The notes under the pieces are model-generated. The model saw only the letters and a list, made by a program, of their open reading frames with translations. It did not search any database and had not been told where the DNA came from. 64,000 nt of DNA from Patescibacteria group bacterium (GTDB lineage: Bacteria > Patescibacteriota > Microgenomatia > Levybacterales > UBA12049), in NCBI GenBank assembly GCA_035946335.1, contig DASYZL010000006.1, positions 106,594 to 170,593 of the forward strand. The letters are read 5' to 3'. The position numbers were made by a program, and so were the translations under genes. This document shows, piece after piece, positions 18,220 to 32,062 of the stretch. How positions within the stretch are numbered: the first letter of the stretch is position 1; every line of letters begins with the position of its first letter.

Positions 18220-18291
18220 CGGGGCGTAGTTCATCGGTAGAACGCTCGGATGGGGTCCGAGAAGTAGCATGTTCAATTCATGTCGCCCCGA
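18220..18291 (+). tRNA. tRNA-Pro (anticodon GGG); CCA not encoded
   Basis: Manual cloverleaf fold. Acceptor CGGGGCG/CGCCCCG (7 bp), D-stem GTTC/GAAC, anticodon stem CTCGG/CCGAG with loop AT-GGG-GT (G37), T-stem GCATG/CATGT with loop TTCAATT, discriminator A. Confidence 0.75.
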
Positions 18292-18297
18292 CAGAAA

Positions 18298-23108: not shown

Positions 23109-23528
23109 TTATTTCTTTGCTGGTTGTGCTTTTGCTACCTGTGCTGTTTCCATCTTTGTGGCTATTTCTTTTTTAATCGCACCGATTGTTACCCGCTTCC
23201 CGCGTTTCGTACGTGCATTTGATTTTGTCCGTTGACCACGAACCGGCAATCCTCTCGCATGACGTATGCCACGATAACTGCTAATATCCCGCAGGCGCTT
23301 GATATTTCCTGTCACTTCTGCGCGCAAATCACCTTCAAGTTTATACCCTTCCAAACTGGTAGCTATCCGTTTCTGCTCATCATCAGAAAGATTTTTTACC
23401 CTTATTGAACCGTCAATCTGAGCTTTTTTCAAGATAATTTTTGCATTATTTCTTCCCACACCATAGAGATAGGAAAGAGCGATATCAACTCGTTTTTCGT
23501 CTGGTATGGTTACTCCTGCAATTCTCAT
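23109..23528 (-). CDS. rpsM: 30S ribosomal protein S13
   Basis: 139 aa; [14 protein letters not shown]... S13 N-terminus. Confidence 0.9.
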
Positions 23529-23531
23529 AGA

Positions 23532-23645
23532 TTATCCTTGACGTTGTTTGTGCCGGGGATTTTCACACACGACACGAAGCACGCCTTTACGCTTGATTAC
23601 TTTGCATTTTGCACATCGTGGTTTAACACTTGCTTGTACTTTCAT
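23532..23645 (-). CDS. rpmJ: 50S ribosomal protein L36 (zinc-ribbon type)
   Basis: Manual translation of the minus strand gives [37 protein letters not shown] (37 aa), lying between rpsM and infA as expected. Absent from the ORF track because it is under 60 aa. Confidence 0.85.
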
Positions 23646-23648
23646 TGG

Positions 23649-23867
23649 TTACCTCCCTCTATAAACGATTCTTCCTTTTGTCTTATCGTATGGCGTCATT
23701 TCGATACGAACCCTGTCACCGGGGAGAATTTTAATAAAATGCATCCGCAGTTTTCCCGCCAAATGGCAAAGAATAACAGATCCGTCTGCAAGTTCTACCC
23801 GAAATAACGTATTAGGAAGGGACTCTCTTACGATCCCTTCCATTTCAATAGATCCCTGATGAGCCAT
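23649..23867 (-). CDS. infA: Translation initiation factor IF-1
   Basis: 72 aa S1-like OB fold; [26 protein letters not shown]... Confidence 0.9.
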
Positions 23868-23890: not shown

Positions 23891-24131
23891 AAACGCAGCA
23901 CAAAGAGCAAAGGGGAATTTTGTAGTTCTTGGCATTACCTCTTAAATAGAGTATTTTGTAAAATCTGTGAAAACTCATGCTATTATAGAATCACCAACAA
24001 AACTGAAAAGCACACTTTGCCAACATCGCCTTAGTACCAGCTTCGTTACTTCCCTACAAAGCAGAGTATATGAACCCGTTGCAAAACTATCAGTAGTGAC
24101 TAATTAGGTAACTATCTGTTAAGATTAACCT

Positions 24132-24372
24132 ATGATTGTCGAGATTGTCGGTATTTTTGCCACTCTTTTCTCAATGATTGCGTTTATTCCTCAAGCTATA
24201 CAGACATGGAGAACGAAGCGAACAAAAGATATTTCACTTACCTCGTACCTCATTCTTTCTTGTAGTGCTTTTTTATGGACTGTTGCGGCATGATCTTCCT
24301 ATCATCATAACAAATGGAACGATATTTATCGTGGTACTTCCAATCCTTCTGCTTAAGATAAAACGTCAATAA
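24132..24372 (+). pseudogene. SemiSWEET (PQ-loop) sugar transporter, frameshifted at a T6 run near 24269-24274
   Basis: The frame from ATG 24132 gives MIVEIVGIFATLFSMIAFIPQAIQTWRTKRTKDISLTSYLILSCSAFLW and then stops. Its continuation ...YGLLRHDLPIIITNGTIFIVVLPILLLKIKRQ is in the +1 frame (tail of track ORF 24178-24372). Removing one T restores a canonical SemiSWEET of about 88 aa. Confidence 0.65.
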
Positions 24373-24705
24373 TCCTCATGATCATTTGACAATACAAGTT
24401 AGGCAGTAGTAACCTCAATTTGTCGAAAAAGGAGGTTGCTTCCGTAAATTGTAGACAGATACAGGTAAAAACATACCCATCATATGCTTTTACTTATTCA
24501 TAAATACAGTTTTGCAATCACTTCTATGGCAACTGTGAATAAACTCCCTATGGGTAGCGTCCTCTGGGTGCCAGGGGCACTACGGCAACAAAAAATCATA
24601 AACAGCGTGAAAGAATTTTCAAAACGCACGGCCACACGGTGTATACCCTCCCCTTTTCGCAGATCGCTAAGAAGACACCAACACACCGACCAGCCGCAGA
24701 GAACC

Positions 24706-25956
24706 TTACTCTTGCCTTTTAACCACGTTGCGGAAACGTGCGTTTACAGGAACCATACTTTTTCCCACCCTTACGACTTGGTCATCGACTACCGCTACTC
24801 TCCTTTGCCTGTATATGTCGATTGGTTTTTCCAGAAGGTACGTGACTGCGAAGGAAAAAAGGATCGCAAAAAGAAGACCGATGAGGATAAATGCCAAGGT
24901 GCCAGACTGTGCGATATGGGTGTATGCAAGCACCTCATTGGCGAGAATGTGAGATATATACAGCGGGTAAGACAACTGACCGATAAAACCATCAAAGCGT
25001 ATGCGACTAGAGAATTGAAACAGAAACGGGAGCGAAGCAGCAATTGTTCCATAGTAAATGTAATCATGAATATTCATCCATTTATACTTATACTGCAATG
25101 ACGGAATGGGGAGACGAAAGTACAGGAGCGCAAAGAGACATACGAACAGGCAGATACCAGACAGTGCAAGGGGGTGCATTTTCTCCATGGGCAACGTTTC
25201 ATACAGCAGGAAATTCAGATACCCAAACATGAAGTACGTCAGAGCGGTGAGAAAAATATAACCCGATGTATCGAAATCCAACCACTGAAAATGGAAGAAA
25301 AGGTACCAGAGGAGAAATGCTCCGGCAATGACTCCAAAACGAATGAACCCTTTTCTTCGAAGCAAAAAGGGAGCGATCAGGTAGAATAAGAGTTCATGGT
25401 TTAATGACCACGCCTGCCCTGTGGTAGTCAGGTAACCGCTTTCTCCAGCAGCACAGCGAACGAAATAGCCGCAATGGAAGACTAAAGTGACATTGCGAAA
25501 AATATCTGCTGCTATTGCAACCGGAAGCATCAGGATATCTTTCTGAAGGAGAAAGGAATAGTACGGAATGTACCAGGAAAATAGCAGGTCTTTGGCATAT
25601 ACTTCGGGTGGATGAATTTTCAATAAAAGCACGACAGCATAAAACAAGAGCGACAACAAGAGTATCACCCAATAGATCGGGTAAATCCGAAGAAGTCGGT
25701 TGGTAATAAATAACCGGTAGGAGCTTTTCTTTCCCACATATTTCCTATTCAAAATAAACGCCATGTAGAAACCGGAGATAATAAAAAACCCATTGACAGG
25801 CGTTATGATGTCAGGGAAAAGCACAAATCCCTTTATCCATCCGGTATGAATAAAGTAAACAGATACAGCAAACAGTACCCTCAGTATTCCCATATATTCA
25901 TTTGTCGTGTCTTTGATGCGGTGGTAGTAGGGGGAGTACCAACGGTGCTGGTGCAA
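24706..25956 (-). CDS. Acyltransferase family 3 (OafA/OatA-like) integral membrane protein
   Basis: 416 aa, about 10 TM helices, typical acyltransferase-3 N-terminal region; last gene of a three-gene minus-strand operon. Confidence 0.7.
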   Translation of the reverse strand: MHQHRWYSPYYHRIKDTTNEYMGILRVLFAVSVYFIHTGWIKGFVLFPDIITPVNGFFIISGFYMAFILNRKYVGKKSSYRLFITNRLLRIYPIYWVILLLSLLFYAVVLLLKIHPPEVYAKDLLFSWYIPYYSFLLQKDILMLPVAIAADIFRNVTLVFHCGYFVRCAAGESGYLTTTGQAWSLNHELLFYLIAPFLLRRKGFIRFGVIAGAFLLWYLFFHFQWLDFDTSGYIFLTALTYFMFGYLNFLLYETLPMEKMHPLALSGICLFVCLFALLYFRLPIPSLQYKYKWMNIHDYIYYGTIAASLPFLFQFSSRIRFDGFIGQLSYPLYISHILANEVLAYTHIAQSGTLAFILIGLLFAILFSFAVTYLLEKPIDIYRQRRVAVVDDQVVRVGKSMVPVNARFRNVVKRQE

Positions 25957-25965
25957 AGGACTCAG

Positions 25966-26340
25966 TTATTTTTTCTTCATCTTCCACCACAGTAAGCCAG
26001 CAACAATTCCACCGCCAACAACGATCCCCGCCAGTAATATACCGATCAGAATAACCGGATTTGTAATGCTTCTCAACAGACTACTCTGCTTCGGCTGTAC
26101 CGTTATCCCAAGCACTAAGGTATGGTTGCTTCCTGTCACATTGATAATATGATCTCCTGAATAGTTGGCAACCAGCGCGTCATACACACTAGGTTGCAGG
26201 TTCGTAAACTGAACGTTCCCCTTTTGATCTGCCGCTACTTGTCTGATTTCCTGTTTTTGTTGAGTAGCGATAATGAGCAGAGGAAGCGTGATTCCTAAAA
26301 ACAAGAGACCAAGAACTGATAAGAGCGATTTTGCTCGCAT
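25966..26340 (-). CDS. Small secreted protein with a signal peptide and a C-terminal TM anchor plus basic tail
   Basis: 124 aa; N-terminal hydrophobic signal and a C-terminal ...PVILIGILLAGIVVGGGIVAGLLWWKMKKK anchor; 9-nt gap to the acyltransferase gene. Confidence 0.45.
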   Translation of the reverse strand: MRAKSLLSVLGLLFLGITLPLLIIATQQKQEIRQVAADQKGNVQFTNLQPSVYDALVANYSGDHIINVTGSNHTLVLGITVQPKQSSLLRSITNPVILIGILLAGIVVGGGIVAGLLWWKMKKK

Positions 26341-26454
26341 AGAAAGACGATATATTCACTATAGCATGTTCCTCTCAAAATTGGCGCTCATTTGCCTACT
26401 CTGATCCTCAGTTCTTTTTCCGAAGAATTAAAAGAAACAAAATATGTCAAAGCG

Positions 26455-28464
26455 TTATGGTTGCGAAGTTACCCTGAAGAAGGTAAATGTTGCCGTATCA
26501 CTGCCAATGTTGGAGAATATACCGCAAGTTCCAGAACTGAGTGACGTATCGGTAACAGTAATCATCCAGTTCGCTGGTTCTGAGGTGCCTGTCTGCCACA
26601 CTTTTGCATACAATGTTGTTCCCTGCGCACGCATGCGAATGGAATAGGACGTATTGGGAAGAGCAGTGAATGTGATTGACTTGAGTACTGTGTCACTGCC
26701 TGCTATATGTTTCTTCAATTGGAAATTCTTTCCGTCAATAAATGTTTTATAGAAATTGCTACTATTCTGAAAACGAAGCATGCCTCCGAAACGTTCTGTA
26801 TTAAACCCCGTGAGAGAACCGGACAGGAGCACTTCAGCATCAGAGACTGATGGACCAAGTAGAGCAGTGGAAGAAGAAGCATTCGTTATGTGTCCGCTAG
26901 TATTCACTATGCTGTAATTTCCATTTGTACTTGCATCCCCCATCCAGGTATTTATCCCGTCACTTGCCCTTCCCCAAAATGTCTGGTTGGGTCTGACAAA
27001 TGTATCTTGTGCGATAATACTATTTATCGGAGTGGGAGTCGGTGTCACGCTACCTGTAGGAGTAGGTGTAGGCGTAAATGTAGGCGTTGACGTTGGGGTG
27101 GGAGTTGGTGTTGGGGTCGGCCCCCCGCTGCAATTCCTTAAAGGAAGTACCAACGGTGGATTATGCACCTGAGAAAAATCAAGCTGTGTCGATAGATCTC
27201 CCGCGGAAACGTCTCGTGTGCCAAGAGAAGAAAGACCGAACGTTTGTTCCGCAAATTTCAGTACACTGGCAAATTCTAATGAGACATGACTGACATGAGA
27301 ATTTCCCGGATTGTCCGTTGCGTATGCATATGGTGAGATGATGATATATGGTACGCGAAAACCGTATCCGAGCTGATCGATATTATTCGGAGCCACATGG
27401 TCATAAAATCCTCCGAAATCATCCCATGTTAACACAATAACTGTCGATGGCCATGCAGGAGACTGCATGATTGTGTTGATTTTATCAATTGTCCAGTTTT
27501 CTCCTGTACAGGTGCTTGCCGGAGGATGTTCACTGTCTGCGGTAGGAGCAACAAGCCAGCTAAATTGCGGAAGTTGATTATTTGTCACATCTGTATCAAA
27601 TTGCTGCCATGAAACATCGTTACTCCCCCATACCGAACCGTTCCTGTCCTGCTTAAACGTATCCAAACTGTTCCAGATATACCCTGATTCACCTTGCACC
27701 GGCGCGTAATATTTCCAGGATATACCCGCGTTTGTCATGATATCAGCGAGTGTATTCAGGGTAAAGCAAGGATAGACTTTTGAGCCGTTCAATAGTTGGA
27801 CGGTTGCAGTTGAGGGAGAATCACATCCCCACGTACCGCCGCTGGAAGGATTACCAATTGCGCTGTGTGCAGCATCTACACCGCTTGCACCGGCAACGGT
27901 ATACATATGATTGGGATAACTCGGACCCCTAAGTGATGAAAAAGAATTGTCATTCAATACAAACTGTTGTGCCAGTTGCCAGTAATTCGGAATAAGACTT
28001 TGCTCTGCCTCAACATAACACGGATAAGGCGAAGAACCGCATCCGGACTCGCCATGATTAAAATTATCCATTGCGCCGTTATCATAATCTGTTTTTGCTG
28101 TACTGAACATATGAGAATAGTTTTGGATTGTGTCGGTGAGTTTATTCAGCGAAATTGTTTTTACCACGCCGTTCACTTTGATTTTTCCGGTTGTTGTTCC
28201 GTTGACAGCGGGAAATTGTCCAAAGTAGCTATCAAAACTTCGATTTTCTTTAATAATAAAAACAATATGCTGAATTGGTGTCGCTGCTGAAGCACGGGAA
28301 GAAGATTTTAGCATATGCTGCAAAAGAAATGTTCCTGCCAAGAGAAGAAAAACTACTCCTAATGCAGGAAAAAAGAATTTTCTTTGACGAAAAAGAAGAA
28401 CTATCAGCTTCTTATGAGACGATGGAGAAGATTTTTTCCCTTGAGTACTTTTCCTTTTTTTCAT
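26455..28464 (-). CDS. Secreted phosphoesterase-family protein (non-haemolytic phospholipase C / AcpA acid-phosphatase family) with a Pro/Thr linker and an about 200-aa C-terminal beta-rich domain
   Basis: 669 aa; signal peptide, hallmark [13 protein letters not shown] motif of the phosphoesterase family (PF04185), (PT)n linker [32 protein letters not shown], then a Ser/Thr/Asn-rich C-terminal domain. Confidence 0.8.
26995..27100 (-). repeat. Low-complexity tandem ACN-CCN codon repeat encoding the (Pro-Thr)n linker of the phosphoesterase
   Basis: GGNGTN-type hexamer periodicity on the plus strand (ggagtaggtgtaggcgta...gttggggtgggagttggtgttggggtcggc). Confidence 0.6.
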
Positions 28465-28516
28465 TATAAAAAGCAGGATTTAGAGTATCATAGCATATAG
28501 TATGCAATTGCAGCAG

Positions 28517-28545
28517 ATTTTAGCTATATTATTGGCTCTTGACAA
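28517..28545 (-). promoter_or_regulatory. Sigma70-like promoter TTGTCA-17-TAAAAT for the phosphoesterase/anchored-protein/acyltransferase operon
   Basis: Minus-strand -35 TTGTCA, 17-nt spacer, -10 TAAAAT, about 55 nt upstream of ATG 28464. Confidence 0.4.
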
Positions 28546-28784
28546 GGAATATAAAAATCACTTCTCGTACAGAACTACCCTCAGCAATTGAAAACAACCG
28601 GTGAGACGATAGTAAAATCAAACGCACTCCCATCTCACCCAGTTTTCCTCGATTTAATTGTCACTTCCCGCCAAGAGTAAATTTTTCAAAATAAACCACA
28701 CACAAATATACCATCAGGAGCTAAGCTTATTAGCCTGAAGACTATTGAAATTGATGGCACGACACAGAACCAACTGCAAATAAG

Positions 28785-29549
28785 CTACGCACTGGTAAGA
28801 ATTCTAACTCCGTTTTCAGTTACCGCGACAGTCCGTTCAAAAAGCCCTGATAAACTTCCATCTTCTGTCACAATTGTCCATCCATCTTTTTTGTACGCTA
28901 TATGAGAACTTCCCATGTTGTAAATCACTTCGATCGCAATTGTCATACCTTCTTTGAGAAGCGGCGTTTTCTCAATAGGGCGGGCAAGGTATCCTGGAAT
29001 TTCCGGATCTTCATGTAATTCATATCCAACACCGTGTCCGATAAGTTCCCGTGTTACACCATAACCTGCTCCATCCTCAACAATCATTTGAATTGTTTTG
29101 GAGATGTGGCCTACTCGATTTCCTGGTTTTACCTGCTTGATTGCAAATTCCAATGCCTTTTTCCCTGTGTCTAAAAATTGTATGACTTGTGCAGATGCAT
29201 GCGCTTTACCCCCAACAATAATTGTTTCGGCCATATCTGTTTGCAATCCTTCAAAAATAACACCGCAGTCAACGCCAAACACATCACCGTTTTTCAATAC
29301 GTAATCTGTAGGGATACCATGGACAATGACATTATTTGTTGACGCACAAATAGCGTGATGATACCCAGGAACGTGTTGAAATGCCGGTTCGCCACCCTTT
29401 TCCCTGATAAGCTTTTCTGCTAATGCGTCAAGCTCTAGTTCACTCACCCCTGGCTTCGCCTGTTCAGTAATAGCAAAAACTGTCTCTGCCAATATTTTTC
29501 CACCTTTTCGCATTGCGGCAATTTCTTGAGGCGTCTTGAGAGAAATCAT
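28785..29549 (-). CDS. map: Type I methionine aminopeptidase
   Basis: 254 aa; pita-bread fold with the metal-ligand pattern (DxxD...H...E...E). Confidence 0.9.
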   Translation of the reverse strand: MISLKTPQEIAAMRKGGKILAETVFAITEQAKPGVSELELDALAEKLIREKGGEPAFQHVPGYHHAICASTNNVIVHGIPTDYVLKNGDVFGVDCGVIFEGLQTDMAETIIVGGKAHASAQVIQFLDTGKKALEFAIKQVKPGNRVGHISKTIQMIVEDGAGYGVTRELIGHGVGYELHEDPEIPGYLARPIEKTPLLKEGMTIAIEVIYNMGSSHIAYKKDGWTIVTEDGSLSGLFERTVAVTENGVRILTSA

Positions 29550-30232
29550 TGCTTTCTCCTTTCAATTTCTTTGAGTATTTTTTCTACTGTTTCTTCTTCA
29601 GAAAGATTTGAATCATCCAGGACAAAATATCCGTATTTTTCTGGTTCCAGCACTAACGGATCCGCTTCTCTATGCGTATCACGATAATCCCTTTCTTTGG
29701 TATCCTTAAGCATTTGTTCAAATGAAATCCCTGTATTTTGTTTTCCACCCATCTGTTCATATCGTCGTTTTGCCCGAACTTCAGGCGTTGCTGTTAAATA
29801 GATTTTGAGAAACGCGTCAGGTAAAATTCGTGTTGCTGCGTCCCGTGCTTCTGCAATGACAACAAACCCTTTTTCCATCTTTTCTTTTGCAATGCTTCGT
29901 TGCCTCTTGACCATTTCCTGTCGCACCTGGGAAATCGCAGCAACTTTTGCAACAGATTGTGTCACATCCCGTTTTTTGATCCGTTCAGTAATATCTTCTC
30001 CGTTCATATACGTTGTTGCATTATCCAGGGTAAAGGTGATTGTCTGCAATGCGACAAGCACCTTCTCTTTATCGCTCACTGGAATATTGTGTTGCAAACA
30101 ATACAGCGTCAAACCCCGATACATTGCCCCTGTGTAGAGATGAAAACCATGGAGTTTTTTTGCAATGAGTGCGGCAATTGTCCCTTTCCCTGCTGCAACC
30201 GGACCATCAATTGCTATTGCATATCCATTCAT
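29546..30232 (-). CDS. cmk: Cytidylate kinase
   Basis: 228 aa; GPVAAGKGT P-loop and the Cmk core; ATGA overlap with map. Confidence 0.8.
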   Translation of the reverse strand: MNGYAIAIDGPVAAGKGTIAALIAKKLHGFHLYTGAMYRGLTLYCLQHNIPVSDKEKVLVALQTITFTLDNATTYMNGEDITERIKKRDVTQSVAKVAAISQVRQEMVKRQRSIAKEKMEKGFVVIAEARDAATRILPDAFLKIYLTATPEVRAKRRYEQMGGKQNTGISFEQMLKDTKERDYRDTHREADPLVLEPEKYGYFVLDDSNLSEEETVEKILKEIERRKQ

Positions 30233-30240
30233 GAAGTTTA

Positions 30241-30795
30241 TTATTTAATAGCTTTCAGTATCTGCTGGTGAATGTCATCAATACGCTGTTCACCGTCAAT
30301 TTCAATAAGAAGACCTTTTTTCCGATAGTAATCCATAACAGGTTCTGTATATTTATGGAACAAATCAATTCGTTTACGTACTGCGGCAAGCGTTTCATCT
30401 TCTCTGTCTACGCTGCCACGACTGGAAAGGCGCCATAATGCTTCTTTATCTGAAACTTTCAGATAAATCGCTTTGGTAATACCGTTATGAAATTCTTCTG
30501 CTTGCTTCACTGTTCTGGGAAATCCATCCATGATGTAGCCGTTTTGGTATTCAGGACGCGACAGGTAATCCTGGACAATTTCCAGCGTTTTTATGTCCGG
30601 GATTAAATACCCTGCATTGATAGTTTCCTTAATATACCGCCCAAGTGGTGATTTTTCTTTCGCCATCTCACGAAAAATATGCCCTGTTGAAAGGTAAGGA
30701 ATATGCAATACGTCATGCAGTAAATTTCCCTGCGTTGATTTGCCGGCTCCTTGAATACCGATAAGAATAATTTTCGTTGGCTTAGAATTGGTCAT
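30241..30795 (-). CDS. adk: Adenylate kinase (short form, no zinc lid)
   Basis: 184 aa; [12 protein letters not shown]-loop. Confidence 0.9.
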
Positions 30796-32062
30796 AGTTT
30801 CGCATCACTAGCTGTGCTTCAAGCCCTTTCACTGTTTCTAGAATAACAGAAACGATAATCAGAATACTTGTACCGCCTAAAAGCAATGTCTGAATACCGG
30901 TTAATGTTTTGGCAATGGTCGGAAAAATCGCTACAATTCCTAGAAATAATGCACCAACCAGAGTAATCCGCGTTAAAACAGTGTTCAAAAAGTTTGCTGT
31001 CGGCGTTCCGGGGCGAATGCCGGGGATAAATCCCCCATACTTTTGTATTTCCTCTGCAATTTTTTTCGGATTAAAAATAATTGCCGTATAAAAATAGGTG
31101 AAACCAACAACAAGGACAAAGTAAATAGCGTTATATAAAAACTGATTTGGATCAAACCACACCGCAATACCTGTTGCTAAGTTGTGAAGAACAGGATTTG
31201 TGGAAGTGGCAAAATAGTTACCGAGAAGGGATGGAATCAATACCAGCGAAACGGCAAAAATAATCGGAATAACACCTGCCTGGTTAAGGCGAAGTGGCAA
31301 ATGAGTATTTTGTCCACCATACATTTTATTACCGCGAACCCTTTTTGCATAGTAAATCGGCACTTTTCTCACTGCTTCGTTAATCGCAACTATCGCAGCA
31401 ATAACAATTAAACCAAGAACCGCAAAGAAGAGCACATTGACAAAATTCTGTCCGCTTGTTGTTGAAGCAGTCTGCGTAATTACCACCGGTAACCGTCCGA
31501 TAATACCGGCAAATATCAGGAGCGAAATACCGTTACCAACGCCTCTTTCTGTGACAAGCTCACCAAGCCAAACGAGCAGCATTGTTCCTGCAGTCATAGT
31601 GACAACGAACCCGACAAGCTGGAGCGGAGAGAGAGAAGTGACAAGGTTCTGACTCTTCAATAAAGCAAACATACCAACCGCCTGCAGTGCTGCAAGCGGA
31701 ACAGTCAGAAGGCGGGTGTATTGATTGATCTTCTGTCTGCCTTGATCACCCTCTTTGGAAAGTGCTTCAAGTTGTGGAAAAACCATTGTTAGCAATTGCA
31801 AAATAATGCTGGCATTAATATACGGATTGAGCCCAAGTCCCATGACAGAAAAGTTCGCAAGCGTTCCTCCGGAGAAAATATCAAGAAGGCCAAGGAATTG
31901 GTTTTGAGCAAAAAGATTTTTCAGTCCTGCAACATCAACGCCGGCAACCGGAATATGAGCAAAAAAACGAAAGATGATAAGAATTGCTGCGGTAAAGAGG
32001 ATTTTATTGCGGATTGACTCCACCTGAAAACTTCTTTTGAAAATAGTGAGAAAATTATTCAC
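30782..32062 (-). CDS. secY: Preprotein translocase subunit SecY
   Basis: 426 aa, 10 TM helices, conserved SecY plug/hinge regions. Confidence 0.9.

Follow-up and report, generated by a model that had tools for sequence, protein, structure and literature searches.

The described enzymes closest to the one reported here belong to the PF04185 phosphoesterases. One set, represented by Francisella AcpA (PDB 2D1G) and Mycobacterium tuberculosis SapM, consists of exported PF04185 proteins that use a Ser nucleophile and carry no DUF756 domain. A second set comprises the phospholipases C (PLCs), including Pseudomonas aeruginosa PlcH and PlcN (TIGR03396) and the plant/fungal non-specific PLCs NPC4 and RePLC. 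We analyzed a 64,000-nt stretch of contig DASYZL010000006.1 (hereafter, the window) from a metagenome-assembled genome (MAG) of a soil Patescibacteria bacterium, and found that positions 23911–28784 are a genome-specific accessory insertion between map and infA. Encoded there are a 669-aa PF04185 phosphoesterase, a 124-aa protein (p124), a family-3 acyltransferase (AT3) and a SemiSWEET gene.

The window phosphoesterase resembles AcpA and SapM in its ENxSFD metal-binding motif, GPS nucleophile motif, DD..DH motif and SEHP histidine, and AcpA has the highest structural-alignment identity (24–25%) among its Foldseek neighbours. It differs from both in having a Pro/Thr-rich (PT) linker and a lectin-like C-terminal domain. 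With PlcH, PlcN, NPC4 and RePLC it shares the phosphoesterase fold, the catalytic constellation and a PN motif after the nucleophile, but PLCs of this group use Thr (T158 in NPC4; Thr at the aligned position of PlcH) where the window enzyme has Ser. It also lacks the DUF756 domains of the phosphocholine-specific PLCs, a C-terminal domain (CTD) like that of NPC4, and a twin-arginine signal. The predicted fold of the lectin-like domain resembles that of CBM66, the carbohydrate-binding module (CBM) of the Bacillus subtilis SacC levanase (PDB 4B1M); the two are 18% identical in sequence, and in the window the domain is joined to a phosphoesterase rather than to a glycoside hydrolase. On balance, we consider it probable that this insertion, which lies at a seam between transcription units, carries as its main cargo an exported enzyme of the AcpA/PLC superfamily that was acquired by horizontal gene transfer (HGT), is tethered to glycan and scavenges phosphoesters.

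The map–infA seam

In the window, map (28785–29549, minus strand; type I methionyl aminopeptidase, PF00557, E = 1.2e-40) and infA (23649–23867, minus strand; PF01176, E = 5.6e-26) are 4917 nt apart. This agrees with the first-pass annotation of the DNA, which had described a segment of ~4.9 kb between them; all of its open reading frames (ORFs) were recovered in place. The last gene of a secY-adk-cmk-map unit, map forms the left border of the insertion. Reading toward infA, the minus strand carries the genes for the phosphoesterase (26455–28464), p124 (25966–26340) and AT3 (24706–25956, a 416-aa ORF), and the plus strand carries the frameshifted SemiSWEET (PQ-loop) gene (24132–24372). The spacing of the three minus-strand genes is 114 nt between phosphoesterase and p124 and 10–72 nt between p124 and AT3. 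An independent Logan assembly contig corresponds to window positions 26324–29532, with 100% identity over 3209 nt, and covers map, a 320-nt spacer, the whole phosphoesterase gene and the start of p124. Because this contig reproduces it exactly, the junction between map and the phosphoesterase gene is not an assembly artefact.

Relatives were taken from a protein database and from a metagenome scan, using a Map alignment (Map 58–73% identical), and their junctions were compared by tblastn with the window proteins. There were 71 in total: 69 with infA downstream of map, and two further loci without infA within 3–4 kb of map. The map–infA gap is no larger than 200 nt in 61 of the 69 relatives (median 88 nt) and measures 201–1136 nt in the other eight; none exceeds 1.2 kb, compared to 4917 nt in the window. 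Homologues of the phosphoesterase, p124, AT3 and SemiSWEET were absent from the junction in all 71 relatives by tblastn. With the window genes absent from every relative and no gap wider than 1.2 kb among them, the segment is an insertion specific to this genome rather than conserved synteny, as had been proposed from the sequence at first reading.

Alignment of the short map–infA spacers of four relatives (L019–L022) revealed a conserved infA promoter, TTGCTCTTTGAGG...TTTG(G/T/A)TATAAT, directly upstream of infA (at about 5785–5815 in L019). The window retains a copy, TTGCTCTTTGTGCTGCGTTTTGCTATAAT, at 23910–23882 on the minus strand, and this forms the right border of the insertion. The promoter is sigma-70-like (TTGCTC-N17-TATAAT), with a TG upstream of the −10 element. 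A strict pattern for it was matched in 38 of the 69 relatives; it was missed by a generic promoter scan because its −35 hexamer agrees with the consensus at only three of six positions. On the other side of the insertion, downstream of map, is a hairpin, GGTGAGA...TCTCACC, followed by GGTTGTTTTC (28639–28600, minus strand). Folding of 28560–28700 on this strand gave −36.7 kcal/mol (z-score −2.27), with the hairpin retained in the centroid structure, and the predicted structure may act as a terminator for the map unit.

Because its limits are the stop codon of map on one side and the conserved promoter of infA on the other, the insert occupies the boundary between two transcription units and not the interior of an operon. 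The earlier description of a placement inside the most conserved operon of the genome must be revised on this point, and eight of the 69 relatives also hold an accessory insert at the seam. Those longer spacers that contain a clear ORF have a single small gene each, unrelated from one relative to the next. In L020 (4743–5480) it is a RimK-like ATP-grasp gene, and in L060 (6539–7408) it encodes a PEMT/ICMT-like membrane methyltransferase. The other junction genes gave weak or no domain matches; the longer-spacer loci include L062 (5747–6190), L084 (3357–3956), L050 (1707–2207), L082 (3856–4263) and L101 (1041–1328). The map–infA seam is a recurrent landing site, or insertion hotspot, in this lineage, occupied in ~12% of relatives, and the window cargo is the largest seen there among the relatives compared.

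Upstream of the phosphoesterase gene is a promoter-like site, TTGTCA-17-TAAAAT (28545–28517, minus strand), that agrees with the consensus at 10 of 12 positions and had been read as the genes' own promoter. The sequence is indeed present. However, sites of this quality are common in the region (18, compared to 12.0 ± 3.4 in shuffled sequences, or ~1.8 standard deviations above), and hence the match alone is no evidence of function. A second promoter-like site, at 28491–28463, was rejected because the start codon and its −10 element overlap.

The flanking genes are all on the minus strand: secY (30782–32062), adk (30241–30795) and cmk (29546–30232) precede map, and rpmJ (23532–23645, read from its translation) and rpsM (23109–23528) follow infA. 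The cytidylate kinase gene, cmk, lies between adk and map, within the ribosomal cluster, in L019–L022 and in many of L028–L107 as well; some relatives have another AAA_18 kinase gene in its place. The only tRNA of the window, tRNA-Pro(GGG) at 18220–18292 (plus strand), is also its only Rfam match at gathering level; it maps downstream of the cluster of ribosomal genes and has nothing to do with the insertion. A scan of GTDB genomes with Map returned distant genomes only (≤45% identity), and the Saccharimonadales loci among them were unusable for the synteny comparison. In six of these (L006, L007, L008, L010, L011 and L015), tblastn found adk and map only; secY was missing on the upstream side and infA on the downstream side. 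We read L006 (9438–13459) in detail: genes for a small basic protein and a 149-aa protein are followed by adk-map and then by ftsA-ftsZ. As adk-map lies outside the ribosomal cluster in these Saccharimonadales loci, the canonical linkage of map and infA is not universal in Patescibacteria.

The phosphoesterase and its C-terminal domain

The 669-aa protein, named 'alkaline phosphatase family protein' by NCBI, matches PF04185 over residues 64–411 (E = 4.2e-59; 200.9 bits against a cut-off of 23; profile positions 1–355 of 356), and the phosphoesterase motif singled out in the first-pass annotation is located at residues 69–81. Four regions can be distinguished, all encoded on the minus strand. 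A putative signal peptide region (residues 1–60; 28285–28464) has a basic N-tail, a hydrophobic helix and an ASA|A motif. The catalytic domain (residues 64–445; 27130–28275) is supported by the AcpA alignment, the homologue alignment described below, predicted local distance difference test (pLDDT) scores and Foldseek. It is followed by the linker, read from the sequence at about residues 446–479 (27028–27129; pLDDT <50), with its PT-rich stretch at 449–479, and by a predicted ConA-like/CBM66-like β-jelly-roll domain (residues 480–669; 26458–27027). Hydropathy analysis identified a single hydrophobic helix at residues 29–53, after which comes RASA|ATP; the AlphaFold2 model has an N-terminal helix at 33–52, and an ASA motif just before PIQH is common to homologues P0002–P0004. 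From these sequence features we infer Sec export, probably with signal peptide cleavage after ASA60. HMM search and hydropathy thus agree with the initial picture of a secreted PF04185 protein with a PT linker.

The best sequence match in the PDB is AcpA (2D1G, E = 4.9e-29), followed by PlcH and PlcN. In the HMMER alignment, E73/N74, H118, S182, H313 and D348/D349 fall on AcpA E43/N44, H106, S175, H350 and D386/D387, residues whose catalytic roles in the AcpA/PLC superfamily have been described (PMC6635428, PMC9837106). H118 corresponds to the histidine of NHEYH, S182 lies within GPSYPN and H313 within SEHP. Across an alignment of 91 homologous sequences (A3), each of these catalytic residues is either invariant or conserved to 90% or more, Ser at position 182 to at least 90%, so the active site expected from the first reading is present. 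Three Cys pairs are conserved in A3 as well, which fits an extracytoplasmic protein, and so is H356. AlphaFold modelled the catalytic domain with pLDDT >90, and the Foldseek neighbours of this model (E = 1e-26 to 1e-21) are PlcN, PlcH, Streptomyces GPE-EP (8yk5), AcpA, RePLC and NPC4.

We also scored the protein against the two characterised subfamilies. It reaches 149.9 bits with TIGR03396 (PC_PLC), below the equivalog cut-off of 580.25, and 115.2 bits with TIGR03397 (acid_phos_Burk, the AcpA-type, Burkholderia-type model), below the cut-off of 362.75. Its nucleophile is Ser182, with GPS182YPN aligning to GPTNPN of 9gye. No DUF756 or NPC4-type CTD was found: Pfam gives PF04185 only, and the C-terminal domain is a ConA-like jelly roll. 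Given the scores under both NCBIfam cut-offs, the Ser nucleophile and the lack of DUF756, the enzyme is, as judged from its sequence, a superfamily member outside both characterised subfamilies.

The C-terminal domain, which had been set down as uncharacterised, can be described further. In the predicted model its β-jelly-roll fold superimposes on CBM66, while Pfam and NCBIfam yielded no match, even with E-values of up to 10 allowed. In an exhaustive search with HMMER, the domain turned up in 2623 representative clusters (50% identity) at E ≤1e-3. It often occurs in tandem, in up to 4–5 copies with PT linkers between them, in proteins of 1000–3500 aa (maximum 3456); examples of tandem copies are P0103 and P0241–P0254. 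In 66 sampled proteins it accompanies GH5, GH26, GH39, α-galactosidase (melibiase) and CE2 modules; other partners in this sample are proteases, pectate-lyase-like helices, β-propellers, Ser/Thr kinases and TIR domains. Judging from the predicted structure, with indirect support from its GH5, GH26, GH39, melibiase and CE2 partners, the domain is most plausibly a ConA-like lectin or CBM-like module that binds glycan. The fusion of a PF04185 enzyme to a lectin-like domain that has no family model is a minor architectural novelty.

p124, AT3 and SemiSWEET

As first annotated, p124 combines a signal segment with a C-terminal transmembrane (TM) anchor: hydrophobic segments lie at residues 3–28 and 88–121. 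This bitopic layout comprises an N-terminal signal or anchor, a β-rich ectodomain of ~55 aa, a C-terminal TM helix and a KMKKK tail. This C-terminus resembles a tripartite sorting signal, with no recognisable LPXTG-type motif (the sequence reads SITNP). No relatives of p124 were found in Pfam, in NCBIfam, by tblastn against all loci or in the metagenome scan. Weak matches to SdrD_B and to a poxvirus family (E about 0.04) were dismissed, and the small genes upstream of AT3 homologues in L024 (89 aa) and L026 (96 aa), considered as possible p124 equivalents, proved unrelated.

The assignment of the third gene to the family-3 acyltransferases stands, with a PF01757 match of E = 3.2e-14 (53.2 bits against a cut-off of 31; profile positions 2–325 of 326). 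NCBI places its start at the ATG at 25893 (M22), which is the likely start and gives a protein of 395 aa. The protein has multi-pass TM segments and, in MGILRVLFAVSVYFIH, R26-X10-H37; R-X10-H is presumably the N-terminal catalytic motif characteristic of AT3 enzymes. In its PF01757 score above the cut-off, its multi-pass topology and the R-X10-H near its N-terminus it resembles the AT3-only O-acyltransferases (JGI 'peptidoglycan/LPS O-acetylase OafA/YrhL'). It has no fused SGNH domain. It probably acylates an extracytoplasmic glycan. The closest homologues (50–66% identical) are uncharacterised metagenomic proteins, and a next tier at ~35% includes several named Bacteroidota by their sources. 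Three distinct homologues were found at five loci (L023–L027). In L023 (433–5138, 11234–11593) the gene sits among integrase, resolvase and HTH_17 genes, and in L024–L027 (L024, 3241–4419; L026, 4467–4784) it lies directly upstream of genes for large secreted proteins with immunoglobulin-like repeats, which hints that AT3 travels with surface-protein cargo. At none of the five loci does it lie next to a PF04185 gene.

The SemiSWEET gene reported beside these genes is present but not intact. The first frame, 24132–24293, encodes 53 aa with a PQ-loop match (E = 4.2e-11) and then ends; the rest of the protein, including TM3, is in the frame 24274–24372, and an ORF of ~80–100 aa with three TM helices is absent. 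Depending on the frame, the 11-mer TATGGACTGTT (24274–24284) is read as LWTV or as YGLL. When a second, tandem copy of it is put back, the gene encodes 83 aa, and this repaired protein has improved scores of 48.2 bits with PQ-loop and 36.2 bits with MtN3_slv (cut-off 23.7). A single-base slip in a T6 run explained the frameshift less well (40.2 and 19.4 bits, compared to 48.2 and 36.2). This suggests a slipped-repeat deletion or an assembly error, so that the gene is either a pseudogene or mis-assembled. Between the convergent SemiSWEET and AT3 genes is a 333-nt non-coding gap (24373–24705), in which no terminator or RNA family was predicted. An antisense ORF at 24484–25101 (205 aa) gave no Pfam match and was treated as spurious.

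Origin and role of the cargo

The only taxonomically named relatives of both domains of the phosphoesterase are from Ktedonobacteraceae (P0024, P0057, P0058 and P0103). For the catalytic domain, where this holds among the top 120 matches, they are 55–63% identical; in P0103 the C-terminal domain (46% identical) occurs three times in tandem. Full-length homologues (P0002–P0007, 52–69% identity) occur in unrelated contexts; four loci were examined (L002–L005), of which at least L002, with DUF4012 and SurA_N genes, looks Patescibacteria-like. These data, which include few named sequences, suggest that some soil Patescibacteria gained a Chloroflexota-type secreted enzyme by HGT. GC content at third codon positions (GC3) is 0.378 for the phosphoesterase gene (z-score 0.5), 0.448 for p124 (z-score 1.7) and 0.506 for AT3 (z-score 2.6). 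The high GC3 of p124 and AT3 suggests that these two were acquired separately or more recently. Rfam hits to mir-15 and IS009 were chance matches far below gathering scores.

How might the insertion work? Placed in the seam, it would leave expression of both units undisturbed, which probably also explains the odd single genes found at the same spot in relatives. The enzyme would be exported by Sec, with its signal peptide cut after ASA60, and the PT linker would join the catalytic domain to a lectin-like domain docking on polysaccharide, be it the cell wall of a neighbour or host or a soil glycan. Ser182, activated by the metal site of E73, N74, D348 and D349, would attack the phosphoester to give a phospho-serine intermediate. 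H118 and H313 may bind the phosphoryl group and assist catalysis, with water then freeing phosphate or a phospho-head group. A broad phosphomono- or diesterase that scavenges nutrients, yielding phosphate, head groups and dephosphorylated metabolites, seems to us likelier than an enzyme dedicated to attacking membranes. p124 and AT3 would be separate, envelope-related cargo, probably acquired independently of the enzyme.

Several observations weigh against this account. The AcpA substrate-binding histidines H287 and H288 are not among the residues mapped onto the phosphoesterase, Foldseek places PlcN and PlcH marginally above AcpA in a superfamily that includes true PLCs, and the SYPN that follows GP in the nucleophile motif resembles the PLC motif TNPN. 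The substrate itself cannot be read from the sequence. That the C-terminal domain binds glycan is predicted from its fold, at 18% sequence identity. As for origin, the ordinary GC3 of the phosphoesterase gene implies that its acquisition was not recent, the donor rests on four named sequences, and no mobile-element genes, tRNA or flanking repeats were found at the insert in searches for repeats, tRNAs, Rfam families and, among the Pfam-scanned insert ORFs, recombinases. Lastly, the right-hand junction, from AT3 through SemiSWEET to infA, is without independent assembly support.

One alternative, essentially that of the first-pass annotation, is a three-gene operon directed at host membrane or envelope lipid, in which a true PLC cleaves host phospholipids so that their diacylglycerol can be salvaged, in concert with the acyltransferase and the small anchored protein. 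Genuine PLCs do occur in PF04185, and the best Foldseek matches are PlcN and PlcH. The three genes share a strand with short gaps, and no terminator was predicted between them. It is believed that Patescibacteria recycle the lipids of other bacteria, and genomes of the candidate phyla radiation have been reported to contain phospholipase genes (PMC12455944), which would suit such an operon. However, the nucleophile is Ser rather than the Thr of PlcH, PlcN and NPC4; the DUF756/CTD region, which NPC4 needs for activity, is missing; the PC_PLC score of 149.9 bits is far under the cut-off of 580; and AcpA, not a PLC, is the best PDB sequence match. These features do not support the label phospholipase C. 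The appended domain has a glycan-binding rather than a lipid-binding fold. Nor is a single module supported: at the loci examined, L002–L005 and L023–L027, homologues of the phosphoesterase and of AT3 never co-occur and the linkage of the three genes is absent, p124 is an orphan, and GC3 differs sharply among the three. We consider the lipid-directed operon unlikely.

In a Gram-positive or Chloroflexi host, the enzyme might instead attack phosphodiester polymers of the wall, such as teichoic acids, or phosphorylated glycans, with the lectin-like domain serving in wall recognition and the whole protein acting as an attachment or remodelling factor. The family includes GPE-EP (8yk5), an enzyme of soluble phosphodiesters, and the Ktedonobacteraceae affinities of both domains are consistent with such a target. 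Against this, the same C-terminal domain is found elsewhere on hydrolases of plant polymers (GH5, GH26, α-galactosidase), which suggests targeting of environmental polysaccharide, and we find the proposal doubtful. A bolder version has the phosphoesterase–lectin fusion captured from a Ktedonobacteria-type host, so that the lectin recognises glycan of the host's cell wall while phosphate, head groups or lipids are stripped by the enzyme from the host envelope. In that case the gene would mark host range and serve in host exploitation, and the C-terminal domain, with its roughly 2600 clusters, would found a new, very widespread CBM family; this we hold to be improbable. The prospect that the insertion is an artefact, a chimeric MAG contig or a mis-binned fragment joined into the ribosomal cluster, is very remote: the source is a MAG, the insert has a slightly higher GC content and a GC skew unlike that of its flanks, and the SemiSWEET frameshift could be an assembly error, but the Logan contig spanning map, the phosphoesterase gene and p124 is 100% identical over 3209 nt, Logan data also contain the AT3 protein, gene order in both flanks matches that of relatives, and the promoter of infA has been preserved intact.

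We return, then, to an accessory insertion at the seam whose main cargo is probably an exported phosphoester scavenger. The insertion is real and specific to this genome, and biologically it is fairly ordinary: the gene families are all known, and the two larger genes already carry generic names in NCBI. The conserved infA promoter and the recurrent seam are minor novelties, and none of these results overturns current views. They do show where a streamlined Patescibacteria genome accepts foreign DNA within its most conserved gene cluster, namely at a seam before the infA promoter that is reused in ~12% of relatives. They also show what this genome kept, an exported phosphoesterase with a lectin-like domain, which is a candidate scavenger of nutrients from neighbouring cells or soil glycans. 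The lectin-like domain itself is flagged as belonging to a large family that has no Pfam model, and the position of Ktedonobacteraceae as the nearest named relatives offers a testable hint about the ecological partners of these bacteria.

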